From Eledone cirrhosa (taxonomy: Eukaryota), in NCBI GenBank assembly GCA_964016885.1, contig OZ024750.1, positions 2,914,001-2,978,000 of the forward strand: 64,000 bases of DNA. The letters run 5' to 3'. Position 1 is the first letter of the stretch, and each line of letters opens with the position of its first letter. Positions 5,131 through 32,889 of the stretch are shown here, in pieces. A model generated the notes under the pieces. It saw nothing but the letters and a program-made list of their open reading frames with translations. It was not told the origin of the DNA and did not search any database. Made by a program: the position numbers and the translations under genes.

Positions 5131-5368
5131 TATTTAATTAGAAAGTGAACAACACAAACTATAACTACTCCATTACCAAAGGTTTCTGGATCACAGACAA
5201 TAATAATGAACGTCTGGATCAGTCGTCAGACAGAGATGTTATAGATAAAAGATATCTTTTATCTATAACATCTCTGTCTGACGACTGATCCAGGCATATT
5301 ATTATTGTCTGTGATCCAGAAACCTTTGGTAATGGAGTAGTTATAGTTTGTGTTGTTCACTTTCTAAT

Positions 5369-5374
<6 letters not shown>
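5131..5374. mobile_element. Spacerless palindromic element (about 122-bp arms) beside (TA)n
   Basis: arms are reverse complements around GATATC at 5251-5256; hammerhead motif in each arm. Confidence 0.8.
5272..5337 (+). ncRNA. Type-I hammerhead ribozyme motif (mirror copy on minus strand 5168-5235)
   Basis: ctctgt-CTGACGA-stem II-GAAA-CC ttt GG-TA-atggag; helix I and III pair; base of helix II is imperfect. Confidence 0.65.
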
Positions 5375-12649: not shown

Positions 12650-12990
12650 GGAGGCATATGGCTTAGTGGTTAGAGCATTGGCCTTGCAATCGAAAGGTTG
12701 TGAGTTCAATTCTCAGACCGGGTCATGTGTTGTTTCCTTGAGCAAGACACTTTATTTCACATTGCTCCAGTTTACTCAGCTGTAGAAATGAGATGATTGG
12801 GACTGGGGTCCCTATCATTCCACTGCAAAGTGGTCGTGGAGGTGCCACGGCAAAAAAGCACCCAGCACTCACTGTAAATGAGGTTGGTGTTAGGAAGAGC
12901 ATCCAGCTGTAGAAATCAAGCCAGAATCAGTTCCCGTCCCACCCTTGCAAGCAGGGAAAAGTGGACGTAAAAATGATGATGATGATGATG
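12650..12990 (+). mobile_element. tRNA-derived CORE-like SINE with RTE-type (GAT)n tail; close copy on minus strand about 59575-59910; related heads about 19150-19425, 27855-27998, 43160-43305, 57600-57740
   Basis: A box tggcttagtgg, B box gagttcaattc, ccttgagcaagacactt core, tail ggttggtgttaggaag...ggacgtaaaaatgatgatgat. Confidence 0.82.
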
Positions 12991-24640: not shown

Positions 24641-25933
24641 TATATATATATATATTATTAGGAAGGGCATCCAGCCATAGAAAACCCGCCAGACAGTCCT
24701 ATACGAGCAGGACAACCAATCTTGCCTCAGGTGGGAAAACTCCCGTCCAAATCCATGCAAGCGTGGAAGATGGATGTTAAACGATGATGATGATGATGAT
24801 TATTTATTTATGTTCATACACGGAACAATAGCACTGCTCAAGGTTTCAAGGTCCAAATTTGACCATACTTCCAGAAAAAAAGAGACATCAAACTCGAATT
24901 AGTACCTGAAGAATGGTCACTATTTTGATGTCTCTTGTTTTCTGGAGGTATGGTCAAATTTTCTTATTTTTTTAAAAAGGAGAAGTAAAGTGTGATTTGA
25001 GAAAGATTTAGATGCTACTTCTTGTAGGTTGAACAACAATCTAAAGGTTCCTTCTTTAGTTCATAAATATCAATATCTAGCATTTATTTTAGAAACAATG
25101 ACCAGATGAAAAGTAAACTCAATATGTAAAGCAATGTTGTCCAACATGGATTCCAGTATAATTCTAAAAGGGTTGCGAAGAAGACAAAAGCTTTTTACTT
25201 TTGAAATATTTGATGAAATGGAAAATATTAATAAATATATTTAACAATAGGTCATAGACATAAAGGCTACTAAAGAACATTTATTGGAAACATAAACTGA
25301 GGAATATCACACCACATTCCACACCCCACAAAAAAACCTCATAAGTGTTAAGTGTGTCCCATTAGAATATATTAAACAGAGTCAAAGAAGGATTATTGAT
25401 TTACTAAAATAGGTCACAAAATGGTACAAGGTTGGGAACTGCAAAAACAGGGATTATTGGAAAATTAAATAGAGACATTTTTCCTAACGTCTACTTTAAT
25501 AAACATTAAAAAACATTGTTATTCAATTTAAAATATACATATGGTATATATTTAAAAAAATATATATACATGTAATGTCATGTTTCTTTTTTAGTACAAA
25601 CACACTTCATATACTTATGAAAAAAGAATCGATAATTTTATTAAAAAAATAACTGAAAAATAACTGAAAAATACAAATAAAATTCCCCATCATTGTCATT
25701 AAAATAACAAATATCTCACATCTTCACTGGACTATTTATATGCTCTGAACTAGATCAATGGTTCACAAACTCTATTTTGTTGTGGGACCCTTATACCGTT
25801 TCCCAAAAATTCATAACTCATACCTATTTTTTATGAACAATCTCTTCCACACTAAATCTAAAAAAAATGTTTAGAGGGAAAATTTATTTGCATAAAAAAA
25901 AAAACACTTAAAATAAATTTTGATTAAATCCTA

Positions 25934-27486: not shown

Positions 27487-28088
27487 CAGTGGAACCTCAG
27501 TCTACGAACGCCTCTCATCACAAACAAATCAGTTCATGAACAAGTTTCCGAACATGAAATGCCTTAGTTCACGAACAGTGTCTCGAGTATTGAACACGGA
27601 AGCAGGCAACAGCGGCTGGCAACAAGCTTGGAGTATCGGCAAGAAAGCATCACTTGATGTGTACTTAGTTACTATGGTGATATCTATCTGTCTTTCGCAC
27701 ACAGTCTCTCTCTCTTTCACTGTATTTCTCTCTCAACATTTCATATGTGTGTGTGACAGCTCACACCTATGAAGGTTTAGCTGGCCTCCTCCAAGGTATA
27801 TCTCGTTGGAGGTGACTTTGGTGATTTAATGATATGGACCCCAGTCCTATCATCTCATTTCTACAGCTGAGTAAACTGGAGCAATGTGAAATAAAGTGTC
27901 TTGCTCAAGGAAACAACACATCAACCGGACTGAGAATTGAACTCACAACCTTTCGATTGCAAGCCCAATGCTCTAACCACTAAGCCATGAACCTTCACAT
28001 ATGGGGGAAAATAGTTTAGGTTTACGAACATTTCGGGTGACGAACGGCCTTAAAAAACAAACTAAGTTTGTGAACTGAGGTTCCCCTG
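27487..28088. mobile_element. Tigger/pogo-like MITE with nested SINE (about 27840-27998, minus)
   Basis: CAGTGGAACCTCAG ... CTGAGGTTCCCCTG terminal inverted repeats. Confidence 0.7.
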
Positions 28089-30502
28089 TATATCAGACGA
28101 TGTAATAGAAAAATTGACTAGATAACCTTCAAACGTAGCCGGAAAGAAGAAAGTACTGAAGTATCTTTAACTATTTTAAAAGCAAAAAATGCAATAATCT
28201 CAGCAATCCAATAAAAATGATAGAAGTGAAATGATGAAGTAAAAAATATAAAGCTTATGTAATTTTCTGCAATTCTGGCCTTTTATATAAGACATATTTC
28301 AAGCATCACTTATTTTTATAATGTCAAGTAAATCAAGAATATTACTTATCATAGTTTACTGAATGTTATCAGGCTTATTTTTCTTTGTTTGTTTTTGTCT
28401 TTTATTAAACTAAATACTGTTAGTGAAGTAGCAGAACATACGGAACAAATGCTTGAATAATTTTTAGGTATGTCAACTGAAGAGCAGCTGAATTCACCAA
28501 TAAGTGAGCAATGATCAGTAGAAAGTCTCTTACAAAAAAAAATACATTGCTCTGTTTTATGAAGCATTTTGGAGGGGAGGAGTGGGGAGTTATTGTTGCA
28601 TCTCTATCACAAAATCTTATGATTTTTAGGTTGAATGAAATATATAAAATGTATGTAACCAGCCATAACTACAAATCTTTAAGACTGCTGAAGTCTACTC
28701 AATTGTAATCTAAAGTTAGGAAGATCTGATAAAAAATGTAAACATAATTTTATTTCACTGAGACAGATGTAAAAACGATGACAATGACAATGATGATGAT
28801 GATGATGATGATGATAAAAACAGAATGAATAGATGAAAAATAAAAACAAAAATAAAAACAGCTAAAAATTAAAAAGAACTTCTCTAATTTTAAATTAGGT
28901 TTTGGTGGGTAAACTCTGCTGTTGTATAGGAAAATAGTAAGACATTGACTATGGAACACATATTTAATTGTTTAATTAATTATTTCTTAATTATCAAAAA
29001 ATTGTTTAGGTTTTGCTGATGAGGTGAGAATAAGACCAAAACACTGCAAATTTTTTATAACACTAAATCCTTTTATTTCAGCACCTTAGCCTCACTATCA
29101 CCCATGGAAATGCTGGGAACAAGTTGGCTTGCCTCAAACATTTCTGAAGACCCTTGTGGTGTATGACTAATTGACGCACTGAATGTTGAATTGGTGGGGT
29201 TTTGTTAGTTTTTCTCCTGCTTTGATTATATATATTTGTGTATTATATTTATAAGGTTCCTAGCAATAATTGATTATGGGTATGTACTACTATTTAATCT
29301 TATATATTTGTTATATGATAACAAACAAGAATTTTAAACAACAATAAGTAAACAAGGTTACTTTTTGAAAGACAGACAAGTATGCAAATAAAATTACTCT
29401 TCTCTTCTAGACAATAATAACCACTTTTCTATAGATTTCTTGTCACATAAAAGCACTAATAATAACCTAAAACAAAATCAATGATATTAAAAATTTGAAC
29501 TTTTTATTATTTTTTTTATTTTCCACATGAAGCAACATTAATTTTGAAATAGAACATAAAAATAAATTGCAATTAATTAAGTTAGCTACATATGTTCATT
29601 ATTTTAGAAGTTGTAATTTATGGCTTTTTAATAATTAGTTATTCATATAGACTGAAAATATATTTCAGTCTATAAGAATAACTTTAGTTACCGAGTTGGT
29701 AACTAAAGAGTTAAAGGATAGATTTAATTTTTGATGTTTTGTACTGGGAAAAAATTAAGTTGCCTCTGTAATTCAAAGGGGCCAGCTTTGTCACAAACTT
29801 TGTCAGGCAGAATCTCCCTGAGAACAGCTTTAACCCTTTAGCATGTAAACCGGCCATATCCGGCCAGAATTCTCCCACCTCTTTCTGTTCAAATTGGCCA
29901 TAACTGGTCATTCATACTGATGTTAACGTATTGTTCTCAAAATAAATAATATCAAAATCTAATTGATTCGATATTATGTGAGGTAAAGCCTTTACCACAA
30001 AAATACAACAGTGTATATAGAGTAATGTAAATGGTAAAGGGTTAAAGGTAGACGTGTCAGAAATGCTAAGCCACCTGCACATTCATTTGAACAGTTGTCA
30101 TAGGAACTGACAGAGATCTAACACATTCATGTTTCAACCAATTTTGTTAATACAAAAATATAACAGGCTCTACTTTGTTATATTTTTCACAAGGGACATC
30201 AAAATGCCACTCTAATATATTATAGTGCCTTGCTAAAATGATATTGCATTCGACTGAAAAAATATTTAGCCTCTAACCTCTATATATATATACATGCACA
30301 CATACATACTCATGAAAACATATATGTGTATATGTGTGTGTGTATATATATACGTATGTGTGTGAGTGTGTGTATATATACACACATATATATATATATA
30401 TATACAGGGAGTGTAACTTGGAGTTACTGTAGGTTCACCCGGGTGAGCACTTGATGTTTAGGTTCACTTCTGTGTCGAGGTGTAGAGCTAGACAGAGTGT
30501 AT

Positions 30503-30832
30503 TATAGTGAAAGGATAACAAGGACGATTGGTTACTCCTTCATTACATTTATTGGTAGGTGACGCGTGTTTCGCCACTGATCAGCTCAAGGTTTGATCTG
30601 TATCGATCTGACCTGACTCCATGGATTACAATCCATGGCTCGTCAGACCATTGTAATGTTAATGGTCATTCTTCCATTAACATTACAAGTGGTCTGACGA
30701 GCCGTGGATTACAGAGTCAGGCTAGATCGATACAGATCGAACCTTGAGCTGATCAGTGGCGAAACACGTGTCACCAACCAATAAACGTAATGAAGGAGCA
30801 ACCAATCATCCCTGTTTTCTTATTTCACTATA
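30503..30832. mobile_element. Palindromic element (about 160-bp arms, 8-nt spacer) between (TA)n tracts
   Basis: inverted arms around tcattctt 30666-30673; hammerhead motif plus AATAAA in each arm. Confidence 0.82.
30690..30776 (+). ncRNA. Minimal type-I hammerhead ribozyme motif, Penelope-LTR-like (mirror copy on minus strand 30557-30650)
   Basis: tggt-CTGACGA-GCC...GGC-GAAA-CACGTG-TC-acca; palindromic helix III, GUC cleavage triplet, AATAAA at 30780-30785. Confidence 0.8.
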
Positions 30833-31158
30833 TATATATGTATCTCTGGCGTCACGCAGTAATACAGAAGACCCGACCCCCCACGGGTACAAGCCGAAGC
30901 TGAAGCATATAGACAATATGCCCCCACACCCTCCCACTGTAAAGTGGACGTGTAGGTGCCACGGAAAAAGCACCCAGCACTCACTGTAAATGAGGTTGGT
31001 GTTAGGAAGGGCATCCAACTGTAGAAATCAAGCCAGCATCAGTTCCCATAGGAGCAAGACAAGGTCAGCTGACCTGACATTGCCCACAACAGGACAACCC
31101 ATGCTAGTGTGGAAGAATGGACATAAAACGGTGCTGATGATGATGATATATATATATG

Positions 31159-32699: not shown

Positions 32700-32889
32700 C
32701 CTAAATTGTTCTAAATATTCTCGACATAAATCATCATTATCCAAAACTTCCTCTTTACTTGTATGATCTGCTAGCTGACAGTAGCTATTCTCCACTCCAG
32801 CCATCCAACTAAGAAAGCAGTCTAGAGCATGATGTAATTGTTGCATCGAGTTGCGGTTAGCCTGAAGAGTTTGCCACTTGTTAGCCAAT
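32700..32889 (-). CDS. DMD: Dystrophin exon, homolog of DMD exon 55
   Basis: tctcag|A...AGG|gtaagt; 190 nt, phase 2 to 0; LANKWQTLQANRNSMQQLHHALDCFLSWMAGVENSYCQLADHTSKEEVLDNDDLCREYLEQFR. Confidence 0.94.

Follow-up and report, generated by a model that had tools for sequence, protein, structure and literature searches.

The DNA at 30405-30832 of the window (the whole 64,000-nt stretch of Eledone cirrhosa DNA that was analysed) probably represents decayed 3′ terminal repeats (pLTRs) of a Penelope-like retroelement (PLE), derived from a high-copy unit of ~255 nt with a type I hammerhead core and predicted to be inactive at this site. Two arms lie head to head, at 30503-30665 on the minus strand and 30674-30832 on the plus strand, with an 8-nt spacer between them, and both start at the identical base of the repeat unit. 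A preliminary description of this DNA treated 30405-30832 as the pair; its motifs are located where it placed them, but 30405-30502 belongs to the left arm only. The features of the locus and its surroundings are:

30405..30665, minus strand: left copy of the unit, 261 nt, with its 5′ end at the junction and its 3′ end at a TA-rich microsatellite
30405..30502, minus strand: 98-nt 3′ extension that the right copy lacks; it belongs to the family unit (family coverage is deep across 30405-30500)
30548..30553, minus strand: AATAAA of the left copy, within the left arm
30561..30646, minus strand: left hammerhead; core retained, helix III not self-complementary, helix II predicted unformed (pair probabilities 0.0, fold penalty 18.7 kcal/mol)
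30619..30638, no strand assigned: private 8-bp hairpin of the left copy, in no contig or read among those listed
30666..30673, no strand assigned: 8-nt spacer of the head-to-head junction (depth 38-46 in sequencing run X1, with letters unlike those of the window)
30674..30832, plus strand: right copy of the unit, 159 nt, terminating in a short TA run
30681..30792, plus strand: right type I hammerhead including distal helix I (pair probabilities 0.94-0.96; 5′ strand kept in the loose ends of other copies)
30706..30755, plus strand: loop II insert, 50 nt, family-wide (top depth of the stretch at 30725-30756)
30764..30772, plus strand: helix III, palindromic, with cleavage predicted after C 30772 (self-duplex -10.3 kcal/mol)
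30780..30785, plus strand: AATAAA inside an internal loop of helix I in the right-arm fold
32700..32861, minus strand: of the exons recognised in the window for a dystrophin-like gene, the last (residues 818-871 of a 1,837-aa homolog), with the element 1.9 kb downstream

Geometry and hammerhead anatomy

Alignment of the arms gives 144 matches, 9 transitions, 3 transversions and 10 gap columns, which agrees with the earlier account of scattered, mainly transitional differences plus an indel. The 98-nt extension of the left copy is interpreted as a possible ‘tail’. The short TA run of the right arm adjoins another repeat; high-copy sequence also occurs right of the element at 30845-30870, and a dispersed SINE-like repeat with ~10 further copies in the window lies at 30932-31135.

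Core nucleotides C3-A9, G12-A15.1, U16.1 and H17 are present in both arms, with CTGACGA at 30694-30700, GAAA at 30761-30764 and C17 at 30772 on the plus strand, and with CTGACGA at 30646-30640, GAAA at 30572-30569 and C17 at 30561 on the minus strand. AATAAA follows 7 nt past the cleavage triplet, which bears out the reported combination of a hammerhead core in both arms with AATAAA within 10 nt. Helix II of the right arm has 5 bp (GCCGT at 30701-30705 with GTGGC at 30756-30760), with 60 nt between the core halves and 54 nt between GCC and GGC. The corresponding distances in the left arm are 67 and 61 nt, and helix II there encloses 57 nt. A long helix II insertion, first put at ~55 nt, is thus upheld for both arms. 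Folding of the loop II insert is not significant (z = -1.68).

In the predicted right-arm fold, a distal helix I of 6 bp (30681-30686 with 30787-30792), absent from the preliminary description, forms with a probability of ~0.95; helix II has a pair probability of ~0.4 and a penalty of 6.9 kcal/mol. AATAAA lies in an internal loop of helix I because the distal helix closes the fold. It stands 3′ of the predicted cut, 143 nt from the end of the unit, with no poly(A) tail after it, and its proposed role as a working poly(A) signal is unsupported; AATAAA occurs 1.9 times per kb in the window. The right helix III segment comprises 8 nt (30764-30771) and is followed by GTC, and this anatomy supports the cut after 30772 that was expected in the preliminary description. 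A palindromic helix III, as previously claimed, exists in the right arm but not in the left. The left arm does have its own hairpin, located at 30619-30638. This hairpin is likely a local template-switch duplication, is known from the window alone because none of the listed records has it, and removes helix II from the predicted ensemble of the left arm. For the dimer fold, rough sums without junction terms put the cost at +3.5 kcal/mol in the right arm and at +29.3 kcal/mol in the left, and both arms are predicted to be inactive at this locus. Nor can the pair itself be a cleaving hammerhead dimer, as had been suggested, because a dimer needs two same-strand copies and these arms lie on opposite strands.

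A hammerhead descriptor (helix I ≥3, helix II ≥4, loop ≤100) matches two loci only in the window, the two arms, and 300 dinucleotide shuffles give 0.11 descriptor loci per window; a strict motif (helix II ≥5, helix I ≥4, palindromic helix III) is found in none of the 300 shuffles. An Rfam search of the whole window returns 124 matches, none of which is a hammerhead, and a 141-base search with RF00163 yields a partial match of 17.2 bits (gathering threshold 34, E 0.088) that is aligned on a different CUGA. Matches to miRNA-type Rfam models over the junction and microsatellites are far under gathering thresholds and were dismissed. A pattern scan of viral contigs gives 0 matches, and the ten metagenome matches, all GC-rich (55-72%) with a helix I of 0-2 bp and no further likeness, were attributed to chance.

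Other inverted repeats also occur in the window. A second head-to-head pair at 5131-5374 has arms that are 97% identical, no spacer, and a hammerhead-like core at 5278 and 5229; its core halves are 34-36 nt apart, its three-base loop III is like that of Hydra-clade elements in the published listing, and it has a (TA)n end; it belongs to a different family. A third pair at 60384-60632 adjoins TA repeats, and AATAAA comes after its decayed hammerhead core (60540, 60468). The near-perfect palindrome at 59435-59550 appears to contain the 3′ half of a hammerhead, with GAAAC at 59508 and a long helix III; its fold-back point lies within helix II, and a TA repeat stands at one end. Four such inverted pairs occur in 64 kb, and all turn within ~40 nt of the core. 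Further short inverted repeats, at 24855-24961 and 29637-29683, contain no hammerhead core. A short element at ~61685-61817 has ~47-bp terminal inverted repeats between TA dinucleotides and resembles a Tc1/mariner MITE. Weak tRNA matches at 27929-27988 (33.7 bits) and 12659-12716 (28.1 bits) are probably tRNA-derived SINE heads.

A dispersed family and its decay

Nine sequencing runs contain part of the stretch, none of those listed being an RNA run (which has no bearing on expression), and four were compared with it at 80% likeness. Family pieces placed on the stretch comprise 7,623 contigs in X1 and 1,919 reads in X10, with 26 and 4 pieces in X5 and X9, two of five small-share runs. Summed X1 depth on the arms reaches 1e5-3e5 in many bins, compared to 4-10 for single listed contigs; this depth is not a copy number, but it suggests that the family likely has thousands of copies. 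Coverage peaks over the loop II insert, which therefore belongs to the family. Depth drops to 8-28 at 30629-30660 in X1, which indicates that the head-to-head junction and hairpin found here are not common to other copies. In the sequence before the core, copies mostly differ among themselves: depth falls from 19,537 to 1,392 between 30693 and 30661, and loose-end agreement is 0.53 in 41 contigs at 30691. At the 3′ side, copies run into (TA)n at 30406 in 62 X1 contigs, and a second group ends near 30503-30518/30823.

Left-to-right joints in other copies are of at least 17 distinct kinds among the joints listed (15 of 61 in one table and 12 of 28 in another), where nine are labelled as same-strand skips and eight come from the second table, which has no kind label. 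Inverted arms end at various positions between 30438 and 30620; in 11 of these 17 joints, the forward copy picks up again at 30668-30713. Fifteen X1 joints have depths of 8.6-16, like single contigs. Differing breakpoints at single-contig depth point to independent inversions rather than to one amplified palindrome or MITE. Head-to-tail joints are absent from the locus and from the 15 of 61 joints listed; tandem arrays may exist elsewhere. Text searches of the literature returned no occurrence of a 15-base motif of the element, and searches on cephalopod hammerheads and long loop II returned no description of this family.

The family majority has G at 30766 (87% of X1 depth, 85% of X10 reads) and C at 30769 (88% and 68%), and its helix III is a perfect palindrome that matches the Rfam type I consensus line, with a self-duplex of -13.3 kcal/mol. 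At this locus, 30766 is A in both arms and 30769 is T in the right arm. The right-arm palindrome is most simply explained by two CpG-type changes at symmetric sites; alternatively, it may come from a minor subfamily that carries both. Among the 40 of 166 variants listed, the right arm differs from the X1 majority at 9 or more sites. Four of these letters, at 30690, 30705, 30719 and 30766, are common to both arms (the majority letter at 30705 being so in X1 only), which indicates that the arms came from one template or were homogenised later and are not independent. With 12 substitutions in 156 columns, a clean core of 13-15 nt is expected by chance with p = 0.28-0.34; on both counts, core identity is not a sign of selection, as had been proposed. 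The pair is the best preserved within the window, as first described, but is decayed with respect to the family, given the right-arm departures and the broken palindrome and helix II of the left arm.

Evidence from the family as a whole is mixed. U4C, a change reported to lower activity in vitro (PMC3088659), occurs in 45% of X10 reads and at 5% of X1 depth. The 5′ strand of helix II is changed at 30703 in 62% of X10 reads, with no matching change in the 3′ strand among the 40 of 166 variants listed. Given U4C and the unpartnered helix II change, a functional ribozyme may have been missing from a large part of the family while it spread or aged. The palindrome and the distal helix, on the other hand, have been kept.

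Probable host gene and predicted read-through fold

Spectrin-type exons occur on the minus strand of the window. Eleven exon-like matches to a dystrophin-type protein are collinear at 32700-55612 on that strand; the homolog has 1,837 aa with spectrin, WW, EF-hand and ZZ domains, the layout of dystrophin, and its residues 248-871 map in order from 55.6 kb to 32.7 kb. Homolog residues beyond 871 have no collinear match in the window, and the element therefore likely lies within an intron of >32 kb of the dystrophin-like gene, likely the next intron after the 32700-32861 exon.

Read-through RNA across the pair is predicted to fold at -266 to -273 kcal/mol into a hairpin with 149 pairs, of which at most 40 follow one another without interruption; once it has emerged, the sense core is paired in all prefixes that were folded. 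Host pre-mRNA, presumably read from the minus strand, would contain the antisense arm first, so that a ~150-bp duplex would enclose both the sense core and AATAAA on their emergence. In an active parent, two same-strand copies would instead pair via the palindromic helix III and undergo cleavage after C17, and the long loop II, lying outside the core, would be tolerated; at this locus both arms have drifted since.

Probable affinity with Penelope-like elements and alternative origins

Hammerhead anatomy, head-to-head arms and family inversions sustain the earlier interpretation of an inverted Penelope-type terminal-repeat remnant (PMC4209133, PMC3846280, PMC8557442), and from these traits we infer membership. 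Traits of endonuclease-bearing PLEs seen are a type I hammerhead in a terminal repeat, an inverted 5′-truncated copy with varied breakpoints, and a (TA)n target with no poly(A) tail. RT (telomerase-like) or GIY-YIG domains, expected in the ORF of a parent element, are absent from the Pfam results for 207 window frames (of the 220 that reach ≥52 aa, 206 were included along with one added frame, the other 14 being microsatellite-derived), and the short contigs supply no frame upstream; matches are spectrin-type in 6 frames, plus 3 weak unrelated ones.

Several published systems come close to this arrangement. Palindromic helix III with low, dimer-dependent activity is described in PMC4209133, as are minimal hammerhead motifs on opposite strands 100-700 bp apart. 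Head-to-head inverted pLTRs, tails and solo pLTRs, with self-priming proposed, are described in PMC3846280, and the inverted 5′-truncated copies and (TA)n bias of PLEs in PMC8557442; PMC11167929 attributes the tail to internal RT starts and finds ribozyme cleavage dispensable for insertion in vitro. In the endonuclease-bearing PLEs Pen2/Pen3 of Adineta vaga (PMC3846280; PMC8557442), inverted pLTRs are likewise head to head, with a unit of ~200-260 nt, a one-sided extension, solo repeats and an AT-rich/(TA)n target. The element described here differs from them in having no attached ORF, an extension of 98 nt versus 30-40 nt and an 8-nt spacer versus an overlap; the target duplication is unreadable here in TA runs.

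Compared to metazoan PLE type I hammerheads (PMC4209133; PMC6765202), the core, the G10.1-C11.1 pair, the short proximal helix I, the palindromic helix III and the opposite-strand pairs are shared, whereas the element has a loop II of 50 nt, no extra base between A9 and helix II, and a 6-bp distal helix I around AATAAA. File S2 of PMC8557442 gives loop 2 as 3-10 nt in its canonical rows and as 35 and 29 nt in two plant elements marked as deviating, PLE-X1 of Selaginella. In the same source, PLE-X1 likewise has widely separated core halves at a PLE end (PLE-X1_sMoe 54 nt, 60 nt here), as do Naiad ‘HHR_half_core’ cases (35-50 nt); the PLE-X1 elements are, however, plant, endonuclease-less and rDNA-targeted, and the Naiad cases lack canonical helices. 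The family-wide 50-nt loop II is the sole unusual trait, and it has a near precedent. Six short exact motifs were compared with published Naiad and Hydra-clade consensus files, a weak test in which four had no match and two matched in unrelated contexts only.

It is unlikely that the family is instead a short non-autonomous retroelement, a dispersed retrozyme-like monomer from a pLTR whose transcription would start ~20 nt before the core and which a Penelope enzyme would copy in trans. The heterogeneous sequence upstream of the core, the common start of both arms and a unit without an ORF would suit such a monomer, and retrozymes are reported as pLTR-derived and leaving monomers (10.64898/2026.07.22.740005). 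Animal non-LTR retrozymes (PMC7229834; 10.64898/2026.07.22.740005) are also short, non-coding, high-copy, PLE-related units with a type I hammerhead, but they form head-to-tail tandem arrays, unlike the dispersed, head-to-head element here. The lack of head-to-tail joints among those listed argues against a retrozyme-like monomer, as do 3′ ends that meet (TA)n rather than another unit and a unit start that, unlike that of a ribozyme-cut monomer, is not at the cleavage site.

Distinctly improbable as a whole is a broader reading, in which a very high-copy, Penelope-derived short retroelement with a fixed 50-nt loop II is active as a dimer and is missed by Rfam and the usual descriptors, and in which intronic head-to-head copies survive because the first-transcribed antisense arm silences the ribozyme and AATAAA, with the resulting duplexes becoming editing substrates.

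A DNA-transposon foldback or MITE with a TA target, a CAGGG start and an incidental dead hammerhead is very improbable and largely refuted. The left end does follow TA and start with CAGGG, like Tc1/mariner ends, and a copy whose inverted arm is short would look as if it were bounded by TIRs; two listed junctions fall at 30466-30467. This copy has no matching right end, however; no junction is amplified, the listed joints being at single-contig depth with differing breakpoints, and many copies have unrelated sequence upstream of the core. Retention of the pair by the host as an intronic control element of the dystrophin-like gene (through cleavage, early polyadenylation or an editing hairpin) has scarcely any probability: the likely intronic position, the sense copy with its core and AATAAA on the gene strand, and the long predicted duplex would fit, but 12 of the 156 columns differ between the arms, as in neutral decay, it is the sense copy that is broken, and none of the listed pieces from four runs spans the locus, a gap in coverage that by itself proves nothing.

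As a remnant of Penelope-like terminal repeats, this single locus is ordinary retroelement debris of small importance alone. The family can serve as a marker of how long-loop variants are overlooked in genomic hammerhead counts, and its many junctions could serve to test how Penelope-like elements make head-to-head inversions. If intact copies cut, the tolerance known for natural dimeric hammerheads would extend to a 50-nt loop II in an animal.
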